This document shows, piece after piece, positions 11,082-43,951 of a DNA stretch of 64,000 nucleotides. The DNA comes from Alphaproteobacteria bacterium (lineage in GTDB: Bacteria > Pseudomonadota > Alphaproteobacteria > Bin95): the NCBI GenBank assembly GCA_965205265.1, contig CBDBGH010000003.1:3296001-3360000 (forward strand). The letters run 5' to 3'. The position numbers were made by a program, and so were the translations under genes. The number at the start of each line of letters is the position of its first letter. Within the stretch, counting starts at the first letter, position 1. The notes beneath the pieces are model-generated. The model was given only the letters and a program-made list of their open reading frames with translations, was not told where the DNA came from and made no database searches.

Positions 11082-12437
11082 TCAGCGCCGGGCCAGAAGG
11101 GCGTCCAGCCCCCGGCCCGCAAGCGCGCCGCGTTTCTCCAGCTTGCCGACGCGCTTCATCATCGTCTGCATCTGCTGGAATTGCTTGAGCATCCGGTTCA
11201 CATCCTGCACCGAGGCGCCGGCCCCGGCGGCGATGCGCCGCTTGCGCGACGCCTTGACGATCTCCGGCCGGGCCCGCTCGCGCGGCGTCATCGACAGGAT
11301 GATCGCCTCCTGGCGCACGAGCCATTTTTCATCGAGCTTCGCCTTCGCCATTTCGGCCTTCATCCGGCCGACCTGCGGCAGCATTCCCATCAGCCCGCCG
11401 AGCCCGCCCATCTTCTTCATCTGCCGCAGCTGGGTCAGCAGGTCGTTCAGGTCCATGCGCCCGCGGCTGAGCCGGGCGGCGAGCTTTTCGGCTTCTTCCT
11501 GTTCGATGGTCTCGGCCGCGCGCTCGACGAGCCCGACGACATCGCCCATGCCGAGAATGCGCGACGCGATCCTGTCGGGGTGGAAGACCTCGATGCGGTC
11601 GAGCTGCTCGCCCGTGCCGACGAACTTGATCGGCCGCCCGGTGACATGGCGCATGGAGAGCGCTGCGCCGCCGCGCGCATCGCCGTCGATCCGGGTCAGC
11701 ACGATGCCGGTGACGCCGACCTCCTCGTTGAAGGCCCGGGCGGTGTTGACGGCGTCCTGGCCGGTCATCGCATCGGCGACCAGCAGCGATTCGACCGGCT
11801 TCACCAGGTCGCGCAGCGCGGCCGCCTCCTCTATCATCTCGCGGTCGATGGCAAGGCGCCCGGCGGTGTCGATGAAGACGATGTCATAGCCCTCGCGCGC
11901 ACCGATGCGCATGGCGCGCCGCGCGATGGCGGGCGGGCGTTCGCCGAACACGATGGGCAGGGTGTCGATCCCGGCCTGCCTGCCGAGCAGTTCGAGCTGC
12001 TGCTGCGCGGCGGGGCGATAGACGTCCACCGACGCCATGAGCACCTTCTTGCCGTCGCGGTCGGTGAGGCGCCGGGCGAGCTTGGCGGTCGTCGTCGTCT
12101 TGCCGGAGCCCTGCAGGCCCAGCATCAGCATGGCGAGCGGGGGATTGCCGCCGAGGCGGAGTTCCTCGGCCTCGCCGCCCAGCATCTCGACCATGCGGTC
12201 ATGGACGATCTTGACGACCTGCTGGCCGGGCGTGACGGAACGCAGCACCTCCTGCCCGACGGCCTGCTCCTTCACCGCATCGAGGAGCGCGCGGACCGCC
12301 GGCAGCGCCGCATCCGCCTCCAGCAGCGCCACCCGCACCTCGCGGAGCGCCGCCTCGACATCGCCGGCGGAGAGCGAACCGCGCCGGGTAAGCCGCCCGA
12401 AGACGTCGCCGAGCCTCTCCGTCAGTCCCTCGAACAT
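11082..12437 (-). CDS. ffh: Signal recognition particle protein
   Basis: [33 protein letters not shown], Met-rich M domain. Confidence 0.97.
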
Positions 12438-12439
12438 GC

Positions 12440-12530
12440 GCGCCTCTTCCTGCCGCCCGTCCAACGCCCGACGCGCCGATGCGCGAACCCTCGCGGACCG
12501 GCGGGCCTCCTCGGAGGCATGGGGTGTAAC
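12440..12530 (-). ncRNA. Alphaproteobacterial ffh leader RNA motif (putative cis-regulator)
   Basis: 5' UTR reads ACCCCATGCCTCCGAGGAGGCCCGCCGGTCCGCGAGGGTTCGCGCATCGGCGCGTCGGGCGTTGG, resembling the known alphaproteobacterial ffh motif; recognised by eye, boundaries approximate. Confidence 0.6.
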
Positions 12531-12674
12531 GCTATGGCGAAACGGCGCGCAACCTAACCGCCCGCCACTGCCCCGTCAACGCCCGTCCCGGTCTCCGCGG
12601 GCCCGGCGGAATGCGATGGCCCCGTGCGGGACCCGTATCGGATGGAGGGCGTTTCTTCCAACATCGCACGCCAT

Positions 12675-12743
12675 GAACAATTTCCGATATTTTTGAATTT
12701 TGTTCCCTGTATGGGCTTGACATCTGGCGGATTGTGGTATGAT
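12675..12743 (+). promoter_or_regulatory. AT-rich inverted repeat plus sigma70-type promoter
   Basis: GAACAA-N19-TTGTTC at 12675-12705; TTGACA 12717-12722; extended -10 TGG-TATGAT 12735-12743 (15-bp spacer). Confidence 0.6.
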
Positions 12744-12974
12744 GGTCCCCAAGGAAGCGGACTCCGGAGCCGCCTCCCCGGGTGCCGCGCGGCCGAGCGG
12801 CGCCAGTTTCTGAAAACCCGTGAGAAGCCGACGGGAGACGTGCGCCCTGTGCCTCGCGCGCGCAATCAGGCGCGCGAACCGCGCCGCCGCGTAACGCCCG
12901 CCCGCGCCGGCACAGGCGCACGCGCGGGAGACGCGCGAAACAGGGACCCGCTCCCCGTCGGAGGAGGAGAGACG

Positions 12975-13568
12975 ATGACCGCAACCGACCCCCGCCCCGC
13001 ACTGGCGGCGATGCTGGCCGAAAAGTTGGCCCCCGCCGCCGCAGCCCTTGCCGAAGCTTATGCCCAGGACATGGGCGCAGCGCCGCCGCCGGAGGACGAC
13101 CGCGCCCTTGCCGACCGTCACCGCGCCGGACGCGCCGCGCTCTCCCATCTGCGCCAGCTCCTCAACCTCCTCGACTGGGCCGCCGCCCGCATGCCCGAAC
13201 CGGAGCCGGCAGTCGTCGAAGAGCCGGCGGAGGACCTCGACGACTGGGTTCCGGAGCCGGAGCCCGAGACCGGCTATGACGGCAGCGAGGACGAATACCA
13301 CTATTTCGACGAGGTCTATGTCGGCAGCCAGCAGACGCCGGAGTTCCGGGCCTGGCATGCGGAGCAGGAGCGTCGCTTCGGGCCGCTGGTGCCGGACGAG
13401 GACAGTTACGACGGCAGCGAGGACTACTACAACTTCGGCGAGCGCCAGTATGTGGGCAAGCTGACCACGCCCGCGTTCTACGACTGGCTCGCCCGCCAGG
13501 AACGCCGCGAGGCCGCAGAACTCGCCGCAAGGGAAGCCGCCACTGCGGGCGGGGGTGCCGGTGGATGA
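12975..13568 (+). CDS. Hypothetical protein: helical N-domain plus two 44-aa-period acidic/aromatic repeats
   Basis: GGAGGAGGAG RBS before ATG 12975; host-like codon usage; repeats YDGSED..Y....YVG...TP.F..W...QERR at 13275 and 13407. Confidence 0.75.
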   Translation: MTATDPRPALAAMLAEKLAPAAAALAEAYAQDMGAAPPPEDDRALADRHRAGRAALSHLRQLLNLLDWAAARMPEPEPAVVEEPAEDLDDWVPEPEPETGYDGSEDEYHYFDEVYVGSQQTPEFRAWHAEQERRFGPLVPDEDSYDGSEDYYNFGERQYVGKLTTPAFYDWLARQERREAAELAAREAATAGGGAGG

Positions 13569-13589
13569 GGTCAAGGGACGGACGGCTTC

Positions 13590-13637
13590 ATGCCCGAACC
13601 GGCTACAGCATATGACTCCCGCGCATGCAAAACATGA
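13590..13637 (+). CDS. 15-codon mini-ORF MPEPATAYDSRACKT (putative)
   Basis: AAGGGA upstream; same length and MPE/A/AC positions as mini-ORF at 21275. Confidence 0.35.
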   Translation: MPEPATAYDSRACKT

Positions 13638-13781
13638 CATCGCATGACACTTCATGACACGCTGCCGGGCATCTTCCCCCCGCCCGAACGCAACCGCCCC
13701 CTGCCCGTCTAGCACGGGGGTTGCCGCCGGGCCGCTCTGCCGCCATGTTGCGGAAGCCGTCCCGGAACCGGGGTAGAGAGA

Positions 13782-14672
13782 ATGGAGATTGCGGCAAGCG
13801 CGCCCGGCGTCGTGAAGGACGCCGACGACCGGACCTTCATGGCCGATGTCATCGAAGCCTCGATGACGGCGCCGGTGATCGTCGATTTCTGGGCGCCCTG
13901 GTGCGGCCCCTGCAAGCAATTGGGGCCGGTGCTCGAGAAGGTCGTGTCCAATGCCGGCGGCAAGGTCAGCCTCGTCAAGGTCGATATCGACAAGAGCCCG
14001 GTGGTCGCGCAGCAGATGCGCATCCAGTCGATCCCGGCCGTCTATGCCTTCGACCAGGGGCGCCCGGTGGACGCCTTCATGGGCGCGTTGCCGGAGAGCC
14101 AGGTCAAGGCGTTCGTCGAGCGGCTGGTGGGCGGGCCGGTCGAATCGGCCGTCGAGGCCGCTGTCGAGCAGGCGCGCGCGGCGCTGGAGGGCGGCGACGC
14201 GCAGACCGCAGGCGCAATCCTCAACGAAGTGCTGAGGCAGGAGCCGGAGAACGCCGCCGCCCTGGCCGGCCTCGCCCAGGTGTTTCTCGCCGTGGACCAG
14301 GTCGCCGAGGCCCGCGCCATGCTCGACCGGCTGCCGGAAGGCGCAAACCGGGGCCCGGCGGTGGCGGCGGCCGTGAGCGCGGTGGAACTCGCGGAGCAGA
14401 GCGCGGATGCAGGCGACACGGCGGACCTGCGCCGGGCGGTGGAGGCCGATCCGGACGACCACCGGGCGCGCTTCGACCTGGCGATGGCGCTGTTCGGCGG
14501 CGGCCGCCACAGGGAAGCGGCGGAGGAATTGCTGGAACTCTATCGCCGCGACCGGGAGTGGAACGAAGGCGCGGCCCGCAGCCAGCTCGTCAAATTCTTC
14601 GAGGCGTGGGGACCGATGCACGAATTGACGGTCGATATACGCCGCCGCCTCTCGACCATGATGTTCAGCTAG
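13782..14672 (+). CDS. cnoX: Thioredoxin-TPR chaperedoxin (CnoX/YbbN family)
   Basis: DFWAPWCGPCKQL, IQSIPAVYAF..GRPVDAFMGALPESQV, C-terminal RRRLSTMMFS. Confidence 0.92.
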   Translation: MEIAASAPGVVKDADDRTFMADVIEASMTAPVIVDFWAPWCGPCKQLGPVLEKVVSNAGGKVSLVKVDIDKSPVVAQQMRIQSIPAVYAFDQGRPVDAFMGALPESQVKAFVERLVGGPVESAVEAAVEQARAALEGGDAQTAGAILNEVLRQEPENAAALAGLAQVFLAVDQVAEARAMLDRLPEGANRGPAVAAAVSAVELAEQSADAGDTADLRRAVEADPDDHRARFDLAMALFGGGRHREAAEELLELYRRDREWNEGAARSQLVKFFEAWGPMHELTVDIRRRLSTMMFS

Positions 14673-14685
14673 GGAGCGGGCGGCC

Positions 14686-15339
14686 GTGGCCCTCAGGCGA
14701 TCCCTGCCGGAGGTCATCCCGGTTTTCCCGCTGCCCGGCGTGCTGCTGCTGCCGCGCGCCATGCTGCCGCTGCATATCTTCGAACCGCGCTACCGGGCGA
14801 TGATCCGCGATGCGCTGGACGATGAGGGGATCGTCGGCATGGTGCAGCCCTGCGCGGAAGGGACCGATCCGGCGAACCCGCCGATCTACGGGATCGGTTG
14901 CGCCGGCAAGATCCAGAACTCGGAGAAGCTCGACGACGGGCGCTATATGGTCGCGCTGCAGGGCATTGCGCGCTTTCGCATAGACCGCGAGCTGGCGCGC
15001 CATCCCGACGGCTACCGCACCGTCCATGCAGATTTCGAGGGGTTCGGGGACGATCTCGATGCGCGCCGCAGCAGCCCGGTGGACCGCGACGGCCTGCTGG
15101 AGGCGCTGCGCGGCTTCCTGGCGCGGCGGGGGCTCAGCGCCGACTGGGACGCCGTGGGCAGGGCCGACGACGAAATGCTGGTCAATGCGCTCTCCATGGG
15201 CTGCCCCTTCGCGCCCAATGAGAAGCAGGCGCTGCTCGAATGCGGCGACACCGGCGAGCGCGCCCGGATGCTGGAAACGCTGTTCGCCATGTCGGGCTTC
15301 CAGGCGGCGAACGACGACGACCCGGCGCGGATGAATTGA
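14686..15339 (+). CDS. LON peptidase substrate-binding domain protein
   Basis: [36 protein letters not shown]. Confidence 0.9.
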
Positions 15340-15346
15340 GGCGGCG

Positions 15347-15541
15347 ATGACGGGTTCGGGAGAGGTCGATCCGCTGCTGCTGCAATTGCTGGTCTGCCCG
15401 GTGACCAAGGGGCCGCTGGAATACGACCGCGAGGCGGGAGAGCTGGTCAGCCGTTCGGCGGGGCTGGCCTACCCGGTCCGCGACGGCATCCCGATCATGC
15501 TGGTGGAGGAGGCGCGGGAGCTCGACGGGGACGGGCGGTGA
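15347..15541 (+). CDS. Trm112/YcaR family protein
   Basis: [11 protein letters not shown]...[17 protein letters not shown]. Confidence 0.93.
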
Positions 15542-15891
15542 GCCGCCCGACCGAGCTGCGCTATTCCAGGGCTGCGCGCGTGCTGCACATCGCCTTCGAC
15601 GACGGGGCGGCGTTCGACCTACCGGCGGAATTGCTGCGCGTCGAGAGTCCTTCGGCCGAGGTCCAGGGCCACGGGCCGGGCCGCAAGACGACGGTTTCCG
15701 GCCGCGCCCATGTCGGCATTATCGAAATCCTGCCCGAGGGCAATTACGCCGTCCGGCTGGTCTTCGACGACCTGCACGACACCGGCATCTACAGCTGGAC
15801 CTATCTGCGCGAACTCGGCGAGCGCCGGGACGAACTCTGGGACGCCTATCTGGAGGCGCTGGAGGCCGGCGGCCTCTCGCGCGAGCCGTAG
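15538..15891 (+). CDS. DUF971 / GBBH-like N-terminal domain protein
   Basis: [39 protein letters not shown]. Confidence 0.9.
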
Positions 15892-15957
15892 CAGCGCGGT
15901 GACAGTCCCGCTGCCGCCGGCTATCTTCCCGCCGTTCCCAAGGAGGGTGCAAGGCTC

Positions 15958-16946
15958 ATGCGCGTCGCGATAACCGGCGGCGCCGGCTTTATCGGCCGGC
16001 GGCTCGCGCTCCGGCTGCTGGAGGTGAATGCGCTGACGGACTCCGCCGGCCGGGAGCAGCCGGTCGAACGGATCGTCCTGTTCGACCGGGCCGCGCCCGA
16101 CCCGCGCCTGCTGCACGACCCGCGCGTCGAGGCCGTCATCGGCGATATCGGCGACCCGGAGCAGGTTGCGGCCGTCATCGCCCCGGACACGGGCGCCGTC
16201 TTCCACATGGCGGCGGTGGTGAGCGCCGGGGCGGAGGAGGATTTCGACCTCGGCATGACGGTCAACCTCCAGGGCACGATGAATGTGCTGGCCGCCGCGC
16301 GGAACCTGCCGGACCCGCCGCGCCTGGTGTTCGCAAGCTCGGTCGCGGTCTATGGCGGCGCCATGCCGGAGACGATCCCGGACGGGCTGATACTCAACCC
16401 GCAGACCTCCTACGGCGCGCAGAAGGCCATCGGGGAGTTGCTGGTGCAGGACTATGCGCGCAAGGGCTATGTGGACGGGCGGGCGCTGCGCTTCCCGACG
16501 GTCGTGGTGCGGCCCGGCAAGCCCAACAAGGCGGCCTCGACCTGGGCGAGCTCGATCATCCGCGAGCCGCTGCAGGGCGAGGAGGCCGTCTGCCCGGTAG
16601 AGCCGGACCAGGCGATGTATGTGCTCTCGCCGCGCAAGGTGGTGGACGCCGTGCTGAAGGCCGCCGCCCTGCCGCCGGAAGCCTGGGGCCCGGCCCGGAT
16701 GCTGGCGCTTCCGGGCCTCACCGTCACCGTGCGCGAGATGCTGGCGGCGCTTGCGGCCGTCGCCGGCGAGCGGGTGGCGGCGCGCGTCGCCTTCGAGCCC
16801 GACCCCTTCATCCAGCGGATCGTGAACGGCTGGCCCACCCGTTTCGACCCGGCGCGGGGCCGGGCGCTCGGCTTCGAGACCGACACGGACTTCGAGGAAA
16901 TCGTGCGCATCTTCATCGAGGACGAACTCGGCGGGAGCTTCGCGGC

Positions 16947-16950
<4 letters not shown>
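15958..16950 (+). CDS. denD: NAD-dependent epimerase/dehydrogenase, D-erythronate dehydrogenase-like
   Basis: TGGAGFIG, HMAAVVSAGAEEDFDLG, SYGAQKAIGE, VRPGKPNKAAS, IIREPL. Confidence 0.8.
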
Positions 16951-18566
<1,616 letters not shown>

Positions 18567-18647
18567 ACAGTTACGCCCGGCGGCCTGCATCCCTATGCTC
18601 GCATCCAAGCCACTGAACCGACCGAAGACCGAAGAGAGGGACACCCG

Positions 18648-20300
18648 ATGAGCGAACTGACGGGTTCGGCGATCCTCGCCAAGGCGCTGCGCAGGCAGGG
18701 ATGCGACGAGATGTTTTTCCTGATGGGCGGCCCGATGCTGCTGGCGGAGACCGAATGCGCCAATGAAGGCATCCGCATGGTGGATGTGCGCCACGAGCAG
18801 GCCGCCGCGATGATGGCGCATGCCTATGCGCGGCTGCGCACGAAGCCCGCGGCCTGCATGGCGGCGTCGGGGCCGGGCGTCACCAACCTGGTCACCGGCC
18901 TCTGCAACGCGCTGGTCGATTGCACGCCGGTGGTCGCGGTCGGCGGCTGCTCGCCGCTGCGCCAGTTCGGCCAGGACGTCTTCCAGGAGATCGACCAGAT
19001 GCGGATCATGGAGGGCTGCGTGAAGTGGTCGGCCCGCGTGTACGACCCCCGCCGCATCCCGGAAATCGTCGATATCGCCTTCCAGCAGGCCATGGCCGGC
19101 AAGCCGGGGCCCGTCTATATCGATATGCCGGGCGACATCCTCTACACGAAAGTGCCCGAGGAGGAGATCAACTGGACGACTTCGGGCCGCCCGCTGCTCC
19201 GCAGCCGCCCGGCCGGCCAGCAGGACCTGATCGAGGAGACCGCCGCGATCCTGGCCAACGCGGAGCGCCCGGTGATGATCTCCGGCTCCGGCATCCTCTG
19301 GTCCGAGGCGTCCGAGGCGATGCACCGCTTCGTCGATGCGTCCGGCATCCCCTTCTACACCACGCCGCAGGGCCGGGGCGTCGTGCCGGAAGACCATCCC
19401 TGGCACTACGCCACCATGCGCTCGACCGCCTTCCGCGAGGCGGACTGCATCCTGATCCTCGGCACGCGGCTCAATTACATCGTCGGCCATGCCGCCCCGC
19501 CGCGCTTCAATGCCGATGCGCGCATCGTGCGCATCGACATCGACCAGACCGAGATCGCCCAGAGCCCGCGGCCCATCGACATCGGCATCGTCGCGGATGT
19601 GCGCACGGCGCTGGAGCAGCTGATGGAGGCCATCGACGGGCGCTTCGATGCCGACCGCTTCAAGGCCTGGCGCGACCGGCTGGCGGAGGGCGAGGCGGAA
19701 AAGCGCGCCCGTCCGGGCGGCAACGCCCAGTCCGACGAGGTGCCGATCCACCCGCTCCGGCTCTGCGAGGAAGTCAAGAACTTCATGAACCGGGACGCCA
19801 TCCTGGTGGTGGACGGGCAGGAGATCCTGAACTACGGGCGCCAGTCCATGCCGACCCACACGCCCGGCCACCGGCTGAACTCCGGCCCCTTCGGCACGAT
19901 GGGCGTGGGCCTGCCCTACGCCATCGGCGCCAAGGTCGCCAAGCCGGACAAGCAGGTCATCTGCGTGCATGGCGACGGCTCCATGGGCCTCAACGCCATG
20001 GAGCTCGAAGCCGCCCAGCGCCAGGGCATCCCGGTGCTGGTGGTCATCAGCTGCAATGGCGGCTGGACCGCCGATCCGGGCCGCGAAAAGATCGGCCGCG
20101 ACCTGGGCTATGTGCGCTTCGACAGGATCGCCGAGGCGCTCGGCTGCTATGGCGAGCAGGTCGAGGAACCGGACGGCATCCGCGCCGCGCTGGAGCGGGG
20201 CCAGGCGGAGGTGGACAAGGGCCGCGTCGCCGTCATCAATGTCGTGACGGACTACCGCGCCCGCGCCGGCACGGTCCAGTTCGCGCAATACTCGACCTGA
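18648..20300 (+). CDS. ThDP-dependent enzyme (2-hydroxyacyl-CoA lyase / oxalyl-CoA decarboxylase / ALS-like)
   Basis: RHEQAAAMMA, SGPGVTN, GTMGVGLPYA, GDGS...N ThDP motif. Confidence 0.85.
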   Translation: MSELTGSAILAKALRRQGCDEMFFLMGGPMLLAETECANEGIRMVDVRHEQAAAMMAHAYARLRTKPAACMAASGPGVTNLVTGLCNALVDCTPVVAVGGCSPLRQFGQDVFQEIDQMRIMEGCVKWSARVYDPRRIPEIVDIAFQQAMAGKPGPVYIDMPGDILYTKVPEEEINWTTSGRPLLRSRPAGQQDLIEETAAILANAERPVMISGSGILWSEASEAMHRFVDASGIPFYTTPQGRGVVPEDHPWHYATMRSTAFREADCILILGTRLNYIVGHAAPPRFNADARIVRIDIDQTEIAQSPRPIDIGIVADVRTALEQLMEAIDGRFDADRFKAWRDRLAEGEAEKRARPGGNAQSDEVPIHPLRLCEEVKNFMNRDAILVVDGQEILNYGRQSMPTHTPGHRLNSGPFGTMGVGLPYAIGAKVAKPDKQVICVHGDGSMGLNAMELEAAQRQGIPVLVVISCNGGWTADPGREKIGRDLGYVRFDRIAEALGCYGEQVEEPDGIRAALERGQAEVDKGRVAVINVVTDYRARAGTVQFAQYST

Positions 20301-20304
20301 CCTG

Positions 20305-20925
20305 ATGGCGGGCGCAGCGCGGCGCGCGGTGCGGGCGGCTGCGGCGGCATTGGCTGCACTCTGCTTGGCCGCCGCCGCTCCGCCGCCGCCGTCATCGCCG
20401 CCATCTTCGCCGCCGCCGCTGGAAGCGCTGTTCGGCGGGCCGTTCGAGCTGACCGACCATAACGGCCGGACGGTGACGGACGGGACCTTCCGGGGCCGCT
20501 TCGCGCTCCTCTATTTCGGCTACACCTTCTGCCCCGACCTCTGCCCGACCAACCTGCTGACCATGGCGGAAGCGGTCGAGGCGCTGGGGCCGGAGGGCGA
20601 GCGGGTGCAGCCGCTCTTCGTCACCGTCGATCCCGAACGCGACGATCCGGCGGCGCTCGGGGACTATATGGCGCATTTCGGCCCGCGCTTCCTTGGGCTT
20701 CGCGGCACGCCCGCCCAGACCCGCGCCGTGCTGAAGACCTGGCGCATCCACCGCCGCAAGGTGCCGGCCGAGGCCGGGGCGAATGCCGACGACTATCTGG
20801 TGGACCATGCGACCCTCACCTTCCTGATGGGGCCGGACGGGAAGTTCCGCACGCTCTTCCCGCATGACACACCGGCAGAGAAAATGACGGCCACGCTCCG
20901 CCGTTACCTCGCCGCCGAACGGTAG
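20305..20925 (+). CDS. SCO1/SenC family copper chaperone
   Basis: GGPFELTDH, FGYTFCPDLCP, VTVDPERD, YLVDH. Confidence 0.92.
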   Translation: MAGAARRAVRAAAAALAALCLAAAAPPPPSSPPSSPPPLEALFGGPFELTDHNGRTVTDGTFRGRFALLYFGYTFCPDLCPTNLLTMAEAVEALGPEGERVQPLFVTVDPERDDPAALGDYMAHFGPRFLGLRGTPAQTRAVLKTWRIHRRKVPAEAGANADDYLVDHATLTFLMGPDGKFRTLFPHDTPAEKMTATLRRYLAAER

Positions 20926-21017
20926 CGACACCGGAGCTCCCAGCGGCCCGCCGCGGACGAGGCGGGGCGGCCACAAATTATGTTCACAAGAAATCAGTAA
21001 TAATTCTGACAAGAATA

Positions 21018-21045
21018 TTGACATTCAAGAATCATAGGCTATATT
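21018..21045 (+). promoter_or_regulatory. Near-consensus sigma70 promoter
   Basis: TTGACA-N16-TATATT within an AT-rich patch. Confidence 0.75.
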
Positions 21046-21274
21046 GGCACGGAAGAAGGAAGGGGCCTCCGGAGGCTGCTTCGTCTCCTGCTTGCGCACC
21101 GGTGACGCCTGCTTGTCGTCGCTCCGGCCGGGGCGACGCAAAAAGAAAGCCGGGCGGCATTCTCCATGAGTCATAACCCGGCGCCGCTGGTATTTCGCGC
21201 AAATTGGGGTTCCGCCGCAGCCGGGCCGGTGATGGCCGGAAGAACGGAACGAAGACGGCTCGAAAGGAAGACCC

Positions 21275-21322
21275 ATGCCCGAAACCACCATCGCCCATGC
21301 CCCGACCGCATGCGGACCATGA
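21275..21322 (+). CDS. 15-codon mini-ORF MPETTIAHAPTACGP (putative)
   Basis: AAAGGAAG RBS; counterpart of 13590-13637. Confidence 0.35.
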   Translation: MPETTIAHAPTACGP

Positions 21323-21479
21323 CATCTCATGACACGTCCGGGGGTGTCCCGGCAGCTCTGCGCACCCTGTCCGTCGGAATCCGGCCACGGGTCCCGAACG
21401 GAGACGTGAATTCGGCGCGCCTTGCCGCAGGCCGAGGACATGGCCAGAGTCGCCGCGCCGCGGCGGATGGGAGACGGCA

Positions 21480-22547
21480 GTGACGGACGATTTCGGAATC
21501 TGGGAAGTGGACGAGGAGACTAAGGCCTCTAAGCAGCTGGAGGAAGCCGAGCGCACCGGCACAGAAGCGGTGCTGGAGGACATCCTGGTCCAGAACCCGG
21601 CCATGCTTATGCCGGGCCTCAAGCTGGTCGGAAGGCAATTGCAGACCGCCAACGGGCCCTTGGACCTGCTGGGCGTCGATTCCGAAGGCCGGCTGGTGGT
21701 GTTCGAATTGAAGCGGGAGAAGCTGAGGCGGGAGGCGGTGGCGCAAGCAGTCGATTACGCCTCCTGGCTCGACTCGCTGGACGACGCCGAACTCCACAGG
21801 CTGATTGGCGACAACTCGGGCCGGGGCGGCATCCGCGAGATCGGGAATTTCGAGGAGTGGTACGAAAGCAACGACAATTGGGACTCGCTGGAATCGTTGA
21901 GACCGATCCGGATCGTTCTGGTGGGCCTCGGAGCGGACGAACCGGCGCGGCGTATGGCCGACTGGCTGGCGAGGAAAGGCGTTGAAATCGACCTGCTGAC
22001 ATTTCTCGGATTCCGCCATGGGAACCGGATGCTGCTCGCAAGGCAACTCGAAAGCGGCGAGTGGAAGCCGCCGCGTCCGCCAAGTCGGAAAGGGGAGGAG
22101 CGCCGGGAACACCTCAACAGGAAGCTCGACGAATACGGAATGCGCGATTGGTGGCAGGACGCTATCGCCGCGCTCGAACTCAACTCCCGACCTTCCTACA
22201 AAGCGAACCTGGGGATTACGTTTTACAGGCGCAATGCGCGCACATTGGCGACGGGTGAAAGACAGGCTGCATCTCACAAAATCGAGATTGCCGATCCGGG
22301 CGACATTCGCATCATCTTCTTCCCAGCAGCGGTCGAACTTTGCCTGAGCGAGTTTCAGGAATTGAAAGACGCAATTCGATTCGATTGCCGGCGGCCGATT
22401 AACACGTGGCCCACGGAACGGGCACCCGAGGAATGGTTCTGCCGTTTGGACGAAAGTGGATGGCGGGAGCACAAGGGCAGCATCGCGGAGCTTGTCCGCT
22501 TGGTGGACGAGCGGTGGCGCGCGGCGGCGGAGCAGCCGGCCTCGTGA
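21480..22547 (+). CDS. PD-(D/E)XK nuclease, NucS/EndoMS C-terminal (DUF91)-like, with unknown C-terminal domain
   Basis: E..LEDILVQNP, GRQ...GPLDLLGVD, VVFELKR, AVAQAVDYASW; GGGAG RBS and GTG start. Confidence 0.8.
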   Translation: MTDDFGIWEVDEETKASKQLEEAERTGTEAVLEDILVQNPAMLMPGLKLVGRQLQTANGPLDLLGVDSEGRLVVFELKREKLRREAVAQAVDYASWLDSLDDAELHRLIGDNSGRGGIREIGNFEEWYESNDNWDSLESLRPIRIVLVGLGADEPARRMADWLARKGVEIDLLTFLGFRHGNRMLLARQLESGEWKPPRPPSRKGEERREHLNRKLDEYGMRDWWQDAIAALELNSRPSYKANLGITFYRRNARTLATGERQAASHKIEIADPGDIRIIFFPAAVELCLSEFQELKDAIRFDCRRPINTWPTERAPEEWFCRLDESGWREHKGSIAELVRLVDERWRAAAEQPAS

Positions 22548-41802: not shown

Positions 41803-42669
41803 ATGGTCCGCGCCGTCCTCCTGTGGCTTCCCCTCCTGCTTATGGGCGGACCGCTGGAGGCGGAGCCCTACAAGGGCTTCCCGCGCGGCCACGCGCTCAT
41901 TACCGCGGCCGACCTGAAATCCCTGCTGGACGGGCGCGGACCGAAACCCGTCGTGCTTGCGGCAGTCGGTCGGGTGCCTTGGCTGGTCGGCCGCATTCCG
42001 GGCGCGCGCCGCGTCCTGCGCCGCGCCTATACGGACCGCGACGGCATGGCGGTGGACCGGGCGCGTTTCCAGGCCTTTGCGCGCGGGCTCGGCATAGACG
42101 ATGAAACTCCCGTAGTCGTCTATGACAACACCTATGACGCCGCGCGCCTCTGGTGGCTGTTCCGGCTCTACGGGAAGACCGATGTGAGGGTGCTGGACGG
42201 CGGCTGGCGGGCCTGGGACGAGGCGGGCTACGCGATCGAGCGCGGCCCCGGCCGGGCGGCTCCCGATGCCGGGAACTTCACCGCCGTGCCCGCGCTCGCC
42301 GGTTGGACGGCCGGCTTCGATGAGGTTGCGCAAGCCCACCCGGAGGCGGGAACGCACCTCTGGGACGCGCGCGACATCCCCGAGTGGAAGGGAACCGGCC
42401 CCATCGGCGAAGCCCGCTTCATCGGCTGGCGCGCCTTCCGCAAGGCAGACGAGGGCCGGCCCTCGGAGTTCCGGACCGCCGCCGAAATCGGCGCTTTGCT
42501 CCGGCAGTCGGGCTTTGGGCCGGACCGGGACCACATCTTCTACTGCCATTCAGGCGTGCGCGCCGCCACGCCGATGTTCGCGCTCTACCTTATGGGCTAT
42601 CCCGAGGAGCGCTTGCATCTCTATGACGGTTCCTGGATAGAATGGAGCCGGCGGGCCCGGAGGAATTAG
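41803..42669 (+). CDS. Exported two-domain rhodanese/sulfurtransferase
   Basis: Signal peptide; AARLWW, VLDGGWRAW, active-site loop YCHSGVRA, LYDGSWIEW. Confidence 0.88.
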   Translation: MVRAVLLWLPLLLMGGPLEAEPYKGFPRGHALITAADLKSLLDGRGPKPVVLAAVGRVPWLVGRIPGARRVLRRAYTDRDGMAVDRARFQAFARGLGIDDETPVVVYDNTYDAARLWWLFRLYGKTDVRVLDGGWRAWDEAGYAIERGPGRAAPDAGNFTAVPALAGWTAGFDEVAQAHPEAGTHLWDARDIPEWKGTGPIGEARFIGWRAFRKADEGRPSEFRTAAEIGALLRQSGFGPDRDHIFYCHSGVRAATPMFALYLMGYPEERLHLYDGSWIEWSRRARRN

Positions 42670-42763
42670 GCAGACCCGCAGCCTGCGACCGATTGCGCCG
42701 GGGAGTGGACAAGCGCAGCGAACGCGCTATGATTTATGCTGCACTGCAACAAAGGAGCGAGCG

Positions 42764-43951
42764 ATGAACGCGGATCCGGTCGTCATTGTGGGCATGGCGC
42801 GCACGCCGATGGGGAGTTTCCAGGGCGTGCTCAAGGAGGCAACGGGGCCGGAGCTCGGCACGCGCGCGATCACCGGCGCGCTCGAAAGCGCCGGAGTGGC
42901 GGCCGACGATGTGGACGAGGTGATCCTCGGCTGCGTGCTGCCGCACGGCCAGGGCCAGGGCCCGGCGCGGCAGGCGGCCATCCACGCGGGAATCCCGAAT
43001 TCGGCGGGCGCCACCACGATCAACAAGCTCTGCGGCTCCGGCATGAAGGCCACCATGCTGAGCCACGACCTGCTGCTCGCCGGCACCAACGATGTCATGG
43101 TTTCGGGCGGCTTCGAGAGCATGACCAACACACCCTATCTGCTGGACAAGGCACGGGCCGGGATGCGCATGGGCCATGGGCGCGTACAGGACGCCATGTT
43201 CCTCGACGGCCTGGAGGACGCCTATGAACCGGGCGCGCTGATGGGCCATTTCGCCGAGGAGACGGCGCGGCACTTCCAGTTCACCCGTGAGGAGCAGGAC
43301 GAATTCGCGATCCGCTCGCTGAACCGCGCCCGCGCCGCGAACGAGGACGGCACGTTCGCGGGCGAGATGGTGCCGATGACGGTGAAGACGCGGCGCGGCG
43401 AGTCGGTCGTCGAGCAGGACGAACAGCCTTTCACCGCCAATATCGAGAAGATTCCGGGCCTGAGGCCCGCCTTCGCCAAGGATGGCTCCGTAACGCCCGC
43501 GAACTCATCCTCCATCTCTGATGGCGCCGCCGCGCTGGTGCTGATGCGACGGTCGGAGGCGGAGCGCCGGGGGCTCGCGCCGCTCGCCACCATCGTGGCC
43601 CATACCTCCCACAGCCAGGAGCCGCGCTGGTTCACCACCGCGCCCGTCGGTGCGATGCAGAAGCTGTTCGAGAAGACCGGCTGGGACAAGGACGAGGTCG
43701 AGTTCTACGAGATCAACGAGGCCTTTGCGGTGGTGCCGATGGCGGCGATGCGTGAGTTCGCCCTGCCGGCGGACAAGGTCAACGTCCATGGCGGCGCCTG
43801 CGCGCTGGGCCATCCGGTCGGCGCATCGGGCGCGCGGATCGTGGCGACGCTCATCAACGCCATGCAGAAGAACGGCGCGAAGAAGGGCGTCGCGGCCATC
43901 TGCATCGGCGGCGGCGAAGCGACCGCCATGGCCATCGAACGCGCGGCGTGA
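42764..43951 (+). CDS. Acetyl-CoA C-acyltransferase (thiolase)
   Basis: NKLCGSGM, NEAF, GHPVGASG, CIGGG. Confidence 0.95.
   Translation: MNADPVVIVGMARTPMGSFQGVLKEATGPELGTRAITGALESAGVAADDVDEVILGCVLPHGQGQGPARQAAIHAGIPNSAGATTINKLCGSGMKATMLSHDLLLAGTNDVMVSGGFESMTNTPYLLDKARAGMRMGHGRVQDAMFLDGLEDAYEPGALMGHFAEETARHFQFTREEQDEFAIRSLNRARAANEDGTFAGEMVPMTVKTRRGESVVEQDEQPFTANIEKIPGLRPAFAKDGSVTPANSSSISDGAAALVLMRRSEAERRGLAPLATIVAHTSHSQEPRWFTTAPVGAMQKLFEKTGWDKDEVEFYEINEAFAVVPMAAMREFALPADKVNVHGGACALGHPVGASGARIVATLINAMQKNGAKKGVAAICIGGGEATAMAIERAA

Follow-up and report, generated by a model that had tools for sequence, protein, structure and literature searches.

Two intergenic inserts, called here copy A and copy B, are the subject of this analysis. 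They lie in a 64,000-nt stretch of an alphaproteobacterial chromosome, referred to as the window, whose positions are meant wherever coordinates are given without a prefix. The reading that I favor, tentatively and with somewhat less than even confidence, is that A is a full-length and B a decayed member of a family of modular cassettes, present in many copies and restricted to one genus, and that the array of phased CATGACA heptamers with which each cassette ends is the binding site of a small-terminase-like protein encoded by certain members of the family. The cassettes were examined in the genome of the window (G000, 5.7 Mb, with chromosome contig C3) and in those of relatives (designated by other G numbers).

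The original prediction, made from the letters of the window, had seen a candidate dispersed element in two copies. That number is an undercount, and the expectation that BLAST and nhmmer searches of the genome would bring to light a dispersed family with many further copies was borne out. There are about 85 loci in G000: 79 by chaining of BLAST matches to four modules (promoter region P, leader X, a 197-amino-acid (aa) open reading frame (ORF) and terminal block T) and 91 by nhmmer profiles combined with a regular expression for the array, a few of the 91 being antisense echoes of the palindromic leader core. All are intergenic and all are on the chromosome contig, none on the two small contigs, and the cassettes range from about 350 to 1200 bp in length. 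Queries with A and B returned 125 and 59 matching pieces by BLAST, respectively, and the leader X module alone has 81 nhmmer matches. The sequence CATGACA occurs 737 times in the genome, as compared to about 138 occurrences expected from base composition, and 87 clusters contain two or more of them. The exact 10-bp spacing noted in the original prediction is found in 103 of 106 neighboring pairs. If CATGAC is allowed as a unit, the clusters number 111, with 2 to 4 units each, and the 17-nt array pattern CATGACANNNCATGACA is matched 103 times, against 0 for the reversed control. The heptamer pattern is far beyond chance.

Gene positions, used to judge whether loci are intergenic and how they are oriented, were taken from a gene caller based on codon usage. 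At the 67 loci with both leader and array, the orientation of the element with respect to its upstream and downstream genes was same/opposite in 21 cases, same/same in 19, opposite/opposite in 16, and opposite/same in 11. Since orientation is unbiased, the cassettes are not leaders or promoters of adjacent genes. The spread of copies has nonetheless happened at some time, as may be judged from copies of class 1 (the class of copy A) that are 93–98% identical across about 900 bp at unrelated loci and have a precise common left end: beyond the position corresponding to 12673, only 2 of 91 pairs of copies share 8 nt or more.

Copy A begins sharply at 12673 and ends with its last heptamer at 13659; copy B extends from about 20975 to 21334. 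Each of the parts that the original prediction had listed for them is where it had been placed. These parts, with the sequences bounding them, are as follows.

12581..12587 (no strand): GCCCGTC, a 7-nt direct repeat on the left side of the 1122-bp presence/absence polymorphism of copy A; its right-hand partner lies at 13703–13709, and the empty site is in G014.
12588..12672 (plus strand): unique 85 nt, within the polymorphic segment and outside the repeated element; no second genomic copy by blastn-short, mostly missing in G007.
12673..12716 (plus strand): left end of copy A (ATGAACAATTT...) and AT-rich box, with TGTTC at 12701–12705; class-1 homology begins at 12673.
12717..12743 (plus strand): promoter of copy A, read from the sequence: TTGACA at 12717–12722, a 15-nt spacer and the extended -10 element TGgTATGAT, with TG at 12735–12736 and TATGAT at 12738–12743; unlisted by a promoter scan whose spacer limit was 16–18 nt.
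12753..12777 (plus strand): leader hairpin 1 of copy A, the palindrome GGAAGCGG-ACTCCGGAG-CCGCCTCC.
12781..12804 (plus strand): leader hairpin 2 of copy A, the class-1 variant of the family's CGCGCCGGCGCG hairpin, from the alignment; its helix is paired in 84% of cells.
12817..12974 (plus strand): leader X of copy A, from nhmmer: a small hairpin (CCCG...CGGG), the invariant core CAATCAGGCGCGCGAACCGCGCC and a long-range GTGCG/CGCGC helix.
Within 12817..12974 (plus strand): 3' part of leader X of copy A, a stem overlapping the Shine-Dalgarno sequence, then GGAGGAGGAG ahead of the ATG.
12975..13568 (plus strand): cargo of copy A, the ORF of a 197-aa acidic protein (P0001), with nine full paralogues.
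13590..13637 (plus strand): block M of copy A (the 15-codon "mini-ORF"), of fixed length and made up of CATG boxes, ATG occurring at offsets 0, 22, 35 and 44 and TGA in the first heptamer.
13633..13659 (plus strand): array R of copy A, three CATGACA (at 13633, 13643 and 13653) spaced by exactly 10 bp; right end of the repeated element.
13660..13709 (plus strand): unique 43 nt and the right copy of GCCCGTC, within the polymorphic segment.
20975..21045 (plus strand): AT-rich box of copy B (TGTTC at 20981–20985, TAATAATTC) and promoter, with TTGACA at 21018–21023, a 16-nt spacer and TATATT at 21040–21045; 11 of 12 consensus positions.
21056..21082 (plus strand): leader hairpin 1 of copy B (palindrome 21059–21082), which fits the hairpin 1 pattern, itself present at 4 genomic places.
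21083..21274 (plus strand): degenerate middle of copy B, the X leader replaced or decayed with just its 3' end recognizable, and an unrelated CGGCCG palindrome at 21117–21138; the orthologue in G014 has the full X leader here, and G005 and G007 have deletions.
21275..21334 (plus strand): block M of copy B (21275–21322, the 15-codon ORF) and array R, with CATGACA at 21318 and 21328.

Aligned with one another, A and B show low identity in their 5' halves and a well conserved 3' block. The one correspondence between them that must be withdrawn is that of the CGGCCG hairpin of B, taken in the original prediction as the counterpart of the second hairpin of A. The two are not homologous, the middle of B being a degenerate leader that is intact in the orthologue of G014. 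No intrinsic terminator follows the array in either copy.

The plan of the family was drawn from an alignment of 24 short copies together with B and from the regions upstream of 72 leaders. The common order is AT-rich box, sigma-70 promoter, GC-rich hairpin leader, ORF slot, and a block of CATG boxes that ends in 2 to 4 heptamers. The upstream patch has a mean GC content of 43%, as compared to 63% in control intergenic DNA, and contains TTGTTC, followed after about 13 nt by TAATATTTC. The -35 and -10 boxes, the latter often extended with TG, are retained while the letters flanking them diverge between copies, in agreement with the earlier claim that each copy has a promoter of its own. The best match to the two boxes reaches at least 9 of 12 positions in 53 of 71 copies and at least 10 of 12 in 32 of them; among 500 control windows, the corresponding numbers are 19 and 2.

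In the leader, the parts occur in the order hairpin 1, hairpin 2, small hairpin, invariant core CAATCAGGCGCGCGAACCGCGCC, long-range helix, and a terminal stem by the ribosome-binding site. RNAalifold, applied to a MAFFT alignment in which stems were misaligned, recovered part of the hairpins, and hairpin 1 was therefore judged copy by copy: over 38 copies, the segment folds with a mean of -12.8 kcal/mol, against -8.2 kcal/mol after shuffling. Across 38 leaders, 88.4% of the cells are paired, as compared to 23–59% when the partners are slid. Most pairs, however, are invariant, and the number of cells altered on both sides is 21, against 16 ± 2.8 in shuffles, with 28 of 500 shuffles reaching 21. 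Because most pairs never vary and compensatory change barely exceeds that in shuffles, the sequences are consistent with the hairpins and do not prove them, the covariation being weak. A scan of the whole window with Rfam at the gathering threshold found a tRNA at 2572–2645 and nothing else, and thus, as had been anticipated, no match for either copy. With E-values up to 10, the regions 12600–13800 and 20930–21480 gave only rows far below threshold, of the level of chance (SECIS_2, 21.7 of 70; snoTBR2, 15.3 of 62; GNAS-AS1_2, 14.1 of 47).

The block with which the cassettes end is of fixed length, with no insertions or deletions in 68 copies, its ATG boxes standing at offsets 0, 22, 35 and 44 and perfect heptamers at 54 and 64. 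The original prediction had read a 15-codon ORF in this block. Its length is indeed kept, the frame being intact in 59 of the 68 copies, but there is no coding signal. Over 62 distinct copies, the ratio of nonsynonymous to synonymous polymorphism (pN/pS) is 0.72 in frame, compared with 0.75 and 0.94 out of frame, the codon positions (entropy 0.81, 0.80 and 0.84) show no periodicity, and what is conserved are the ATG and CATG letters, third codon positions included. With neither frame-specific selection nor periodicity, the mini-ORF was rejected as a gene, and so was a second small ORF (MPKT..., 31 or 41 codons, with a good Shine-Dalgarno sequence), whose in-frame pN/pS of 0.86 compares with 0.93 and 0.85 in the two other frames. 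To judge from these patterns, the two are probably not genes.

What the array does provide follows from its period. Because 10 bp is not a multiple of three, TGA (and ATG) is offered in all three frames, and any cargo must stop inside the array with a C-terminus of the form ...HD[IK][ST]. This rule is visible in the proteins: all 24 of the 24 homologues of the terminase-like protein end in ...HD[IKR]x, the invariant H and D being encoded by CATGAC, and 13 of 23 homologues of the 197-aa protein terminate in HDKT, HDIA or HDIP. Some copies have two clusters of heptamers, 22–26 nt apart. No sequence common to the copies was found downstream of the array. A variant heptamer, CATGATA, in G008 was rejected, as it occurs at a single locus only.

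Other repeats are found in the company of cassettes and arrays. Units of CATGACG repeated every 20 bp (...aagtccgggCATGACGATATGGGGGC...) make up another repeat family, which often adjoins cassettes (C3:1030675, 1080232, 1359545, 2145919, 3286676, 3953613). Heptamer arrays also follow a different module (...cctatccatataagccccaaa; C3:840606, 980499, 1588547, 2146006, 42315/5413307), which is found as well in inverted form 3' of arrays (C3:1205630, 1589175, 4009076). Since cctatccatataagccccaaa joins arrays in both orientations, the array has more partners than the cassette described here. Two cassette loci are present twice with identical flanks (C3:325–640 = 4632892–4633207; 42299–43048 = 5413291–5414040), as a result of either segmental duplication or faulty assembly. 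Contamination of G000 is estimated at 7.28%.

The ORF slot contains one of three things: a 197-aa acidic protein (nine full copies, including A), a terminase-like protein of 303–317 aa (seven copies), or short noncoding remnants (most copies, including B). The original prediction was correct in expecting variable cargo, of which it had seen the 197-aa ORF and the empty slot. Its further suggestion, that cargo is captured, is not established: the contents of the slot vary in a way that is indistinguishable from internal deletion plus exchange between copies. Remnants of the 197-aa ORF persist in four further copies, and deletion derivatives of the terminase-like class exist too. Within the 197-aa ORF, a stretch of 27 nt (13177–13203, encoding ...RMPEPE...) has 78% identity with the first part of the mini-ORF block (13576–13602), with CATGCCCGAACCGG in common, and it is possible that this likeness serves as microhomology for the internal deletions that yield short copies.

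The 197-aa protein belongs to no Pfam family. It weakly matches one family of phage proteins whose function is unknown, and its homologues, more than 150, are unnamed. Its predicted fold consists of an N-terminal helical hairpin and two repeats of a beta-hairpin plus helix, and a fold search gave generic helical-hairpin rows only, with Z below 7. More can be said of the terminase-like protein, the cargo of class 2. Its first 100 residues match Terminase_2 (PF03592) with 50.6 bits against a cut-off of 26.1, over profile positions 2–74 of 141, and it also matches phrog_51 (small terminase). The top four structural neighbors of its modelled helix-turn-helix (HTH) are SF6/SPP1-like small terminases. 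Compared with 4zc3, the DNA-binding domain of such a terminase, the model has a TM-score of 0.82 over the target and 40% identity across 50 residues. The N-terminus of the class-2 cargo is, as judged by profile and model alike, a member of the Terminase_2 small-terminase HTH family. All seven of the Terminase_2 genes of G000 reside in these cassettes. The full-length protein is absent from a phage collection (by tblastn) and from plasmids (by blastn), and IMG/VR holds only N-terminal HTH relatives with 28–36% identity. Both proteins have been kept functional by purifying selection, as indicated by ratios of nonsynonymous to synonymous substitution (dN/dS) among paralogues of 0.27 (197-aa protein) and 0.26 (terminase-like protein).

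The family is all but confined to one genus. Among 16 congeners, the array pattern is matched 110–319 times in 12, 23 times in G008, once in G001, and not at all in G003 and G013. In two sister genera, it was found in one of 10 genomes (a single match) and in none of 10, and in other genomes of the class, in 3 of 200 (1–2 matches each), so that it is essentially absent from 196 other genera. The terminase-like gene is present in the same 12 array-rich congeners, as fragments only in G009 and G014, and it was not found in G001, G003, G008 or G013. A search of genome contigs with the 197-aa protein (2 loci) turned up a cassette of the same plan in the record of an unrelated metagenome-assembled genome.

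The history of single copies can be followed at orthologous sites. At site A, G014 and one metatranscriptome contig lack 1122 bp between the two GCCCGTC repeats, the contig joining 12580 to 13703 with 7 shared letters; unique sequence accounts for 85 nt at the left and 43 nt at the right of the missing DNA. In G007, a related element adjoins that left junction and is joined to a different right flank. At site B, where the leader is decayed in G000, a complete short element is found in G014. In G005, the DNA from hairpin 1 to just past the array is missing, between two TGCGCACC octamers, and G007 has a larger deletion. The AT-rich box and promoter of copy B are conserved at this site in all three relatives. 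A third site has a short copy in G000, a longer one in G007, and a copy with the full 197-aa gene in G005. Two other class-1 copies have flanks that lie on different contigs or replicons in five relatives. The two presence/absence polymorphisms look like microhomology deletions. I read the copies as old residents that exchange their interiors, plausibly by way of the shared leader and array, that are lost by microhomology deletion, and that mediate rearrangements.

Just to the left of copy A, 13 nt (12661–12673) resemble one spacer-plus-heptamer unit of the array (13637–13649; 85% identity). A similar 13 nt is found to the left of the closest paralogue (C3:2827281) and not of other class-1 copies.

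Insertion sequences (IS) are a further presence at the ends of the arrays. An IS of the IS3 family, whose left end begins with TGGAGTGGGCCCC and is followed by an OrfA-like HTH ORF, lies 6–16 nt after the array at several independent loci: C3:640–760 (duplicate 4633207–4633330), 647602–647680 and 2146023–2146110. Solo ends occur at the same offset near C3:1271094, 1576900, 1588522, 3365209, 3851411 and 3856234. The recurrence of IS and bare ends at one offset suggests that the element targets sequence beside the array. The genome is very IS-rich in general, with 62 copies of one IS (551 aa), 34 of an IS21-like pair, 19 + 18 of IS66-like proteins and 16 of a second IS21-like pair, and it has seven copies of a 426-aa TnpB-like protein, though no Y1 TnpA was found.

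According to the favored reading, each cassette would be a self-contained sigma-70 transcription unit with an operator-like AT-rich box, and the heptamer array, its boxes mostly on one face of the helix, would be the site at which the terminase-like protein binds. Small terminases form oligomeric rings, which recognize phased sites within or next to the genes that encode them. The array is favored as the site of the terminase-like protein because of this behavior, because the gene always abuts the array, because the spacing is about one helical turn, and because of the paired clusters in some copies. The original prediction had supposed a protein acting in trans on the phased repeats. The terminase-like protein, which it could not see in the window, is the only DNA-binding protein that the family encodes, and would be the candidate. 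Copies bearing its gene would be the "autonomous" members, and the remaining copies dependants or relics. New copies would be made as DNA, with the sharp left end and with the array as right end, and would then pass to vertical inheritance, to exchange of interiors by recombination between leader and array, to loss through microhomology, and to service as substrates for rearrangement. One may go further and imagine a new kind of element, selfish or domesticated, centered on a ring protein of small-terminase type that has no catalytic partner of its own and that loads on the phased arrays, some 100 "pac-like" beacons per chromosome. The copying, packaging or recombination of DNA would start from these beacons and might be carried out by the nuclease or motor of a visiting phage or of the host, the short copies exploiting the same protein. 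I regard this extension as doubtful.

A number of observations weigh against the favored reading. In G008, there are at least 40 leader cores and 23 arrays and no terminase-like gene, and in G009 and G014 arrays number in the hundreds, while the gene is present just as fragments. Since arrays and leaders persist in these three genomes without an intact gene, the terminase-like protein is not needed for the persistence of the element. The co-occurrence of arrays and gene across congeners is moreover partly trivial, the gene itself being cargo of the element. Packaging partners are wanting in G000: PF03354 (TerL_ATPase) and PF05065 (HK97 capsid) were not found, other large-terminase families not having been searched. 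The contigs of RNA libraries (four runs) show high summed depth over the leader, which copy number could explain, and so do not speak for transcription. As for mobility, the original prediction was correct that the two window copies contain no transposase and have no terminal inverted repeats. It had pointed as well to a copy encoding a recombinase or HUH protein, and none was met: no cassette class seen encodes a transposase, recombinase or HUH protein. A repeat search of 12560–13730 and 20960–21360 gave no inverted pair joining the ends of an element. Target-site duplication was rejected, as 14 class-1 flanks show no direct repeat at the ends and the repeats of 7 nt (A) and 8 nt (B) lie off the ends. 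The empty sites foreseen in relatives exist in the sense that 1122 bp are absent at site A in G014, but the breakpoints there, and likewise at site B, are off the ends of the element. Mobility as it was originally proposed is therefore unsupported, with no target-site duplication, no terminal inverted repeats, and both polymorphisms looking like microhomology deletions.

Several other explanations deserve consideration. Perhaps the cassettes are a family of regulatory RNA genes, in which a structured transcript of about 300 nt is what matters and the proteins are passengers. In that case the CAUGACA block would act in RNA, for example as an unstructured tail, rich in C and poor in G, that releases ribosomes in all frames or loads Rho or another RNA-binding protein, and the lack of an intrinsic terminator would make sense, some other way to end the transcript being needed. 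The retention of promoter boxes copy by copy while other letters drift fits this view, as does the leader, which folds better than its shuffled versions, keeps 88% of its cells paired against 23–59% when slid, and is far better conserved across species than adjacent noncoding DNA at orthologous sites. It fits too that most copies have no protein-coding cargo and that the small ORFs are not under selection as proteins. Yet GC-rich palindromes fold anyway, the covariation is weak and most pairs never vary, and the RNA-library contigs, with their depth explicable by copy number, do not support expression of the leader. Nor does an RNA explain why two unrelated proteins under purifying selection are always in the same slot and end in the array. 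This view is the chief rival of the favored one, though I consider it unlikely.

It is quite improbable, to my mind, that the family is an ordinary nonautonomous repeat, of the type of a miniature inverted-repeat transposable element (MITE), a repetitive extragenic palindromic (REP) sequence or a bacterial interspersed mosaic element (BIME), moved in trans by a resident IS, with promoter, hairpins and ORFs incidental. The richness of the genome in IS (families of 62, 34, 19 and 16 copies), the internal-deletion derivatives of both cargo classes, the nesting of other small palindromic repeats within copies, and the repeated juxtaposition of an IS3-family element to the array are all what such a repeat might show. 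However, the ends bear neither inverted repeats nor target-site duplications, and the genome has no match to the Y1 HUH transposase or REP-associated tyrosine transposase (RAYT) family (PF01797; 0 matches in G000, as compared to 6 of 14 reference genomes with the family in a control search). Among IS ends, none resembling those of the element was seen, resident IS families not having been compared end by end. Moreover, orthologous sites in different species retain the promoter boxes and the leader, and the cargo proteins are under purifying selection. Finally, the phased direct repeats and conserved AT-rich box have the typical layout of protein-binding DNA, and one might take the loci for an operator regulon, binding-site arrays through which a host regulator or nucleoid protein controls neighboring genes. 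This is very improbable, given that the cassettes have no relation of orientation or distance to their neighbors (the downstream gene is convergent at 37 of 67 loci), that the neighboring genes are functionally unrelated, that copies bring genes of their own, and that recent near-identical copies sit at unrelated loci.

How the cassettes compare with known systems bears on what kind of thing they are. REP and BIME sequences in enterobacteria and Rhizobium-specific intergenic mosaic elements (RIMEs) in rhizobia are intergenic mosaic repeats. Like the cassettes, they are high in copy number, strictly intergenic, composed of modules in varied combination, targets for a particular IS family and substrates for rearrangement. 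The cassettes are much larger than BIME/REP and RIME sequences, and they have their own promoter and an ORF slot with real genes. Their end is formed by phased heptamers, where BIME/REP sequences have a palindromic unit, and the genome contains neither RAYT nor Y1 transposase. With MITEs and the promoter-bearing miniature Correia elements of Neisseria they share short derivatives beside longer gene-bearing copies, promoter-like sequences and intergenic dispersal. They differ from both in the lack of terminal inverted repeats and target-site duplication, in the lack of a cognate transposase among the classes seen, whose longer members encode just the HTH protein or the 197-aa protein, and in having a promoter that reads inward rather than outwards. 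The match to a known MITE or REP family that could have undone the original prediction was not found, inverted repeats and duplications being absent on the one side and the Y1 transposase on the other. In integrons, as here, ORFs are interchangeable and have a conserved site at their 3' end, and cargo varies at one locus across species. The present cassettes are dispersed singly rather than gathered at an attI array, each has its own promoter, and the 3' site is an array of direct repeats rather than an attC hairpin. No integrase is associated with them, though no search aimed at IntI was made. Rfam families resemble the cassettes in being conserved, hairpin-rich, transcript-like units, and none reaches its gathering score for A or B.

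The class-2 copies may further be likened to the packaging (pac) sites and small terminases of phages. Pac sites commonly lie in or beside the small-terminase gene, and that of P1 has clustered short repeats. As in SF6/SPP1 (G1P) and P1, a gene encoding a Terminase_2 HTH is joined in class 2 to short direct repeats at about one helical turn. A phage, however, has one such site, as compared to the roughly 100 arrays of this chromosome. The protein has a long acidic C-terminal half that does not resemble phage small terminases. Of the phage machinery, PF03354 and PF05065 were not found in G000, and the full-length protein is found in neither phage records nor IMG/VR.

Turning to the neighborhood of the two copies, the adjacent genes, as named in the original prediction, are SRP54/ffh and a thioredoxin-TPR protein for A, and SCO1/SenC and a NucS_C-like nuclease for B. 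By codon statistics ffh lies on the minus strand (11082–12464), which places copy A in a divergent gap. The gene of the NucS_C-like nuclease, downstream of B (21480–22547), has a third-position GC of 0.76, as compared to about 0.9 in its neighbors, and the DNA around it is rearranged in G009 and G004. Horizontal acquisition of this gene is possible.

No description of the family was found in Rfam, and literature searches on CATGACA repeats and on multicopy intergenic small terminases gave unrelated matches only. There is a real chance that this is a type of dispersed bacterial repeat or cassette that would be categorically new if the link between terminase and array holds. In that event, a phage packaging-recognition module, the small-terminase HTH with its phased site, would have become a chromosomal repeat family, genus-wide and with roughly 100–300 array matches per genome. 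This would bear on the evolution of pac-type recognition and on whether dispersed pac-like sites steer the transduction or recombination of host DNA. Regardless of that link, the cassette is a natural portable expression unit, composed of promoter, leader, ORF slot and an array that stops translation in all frames, and its some 70 paralogous promoters, with one upstream box in common, are a test set for finding the regulator. In these marine or sponge-associated alphaproteobacteria, the family shapes the architecture of the genome, through breakpoints in synteny, through targets for IS, and through cargo that differs at orthologous sites.

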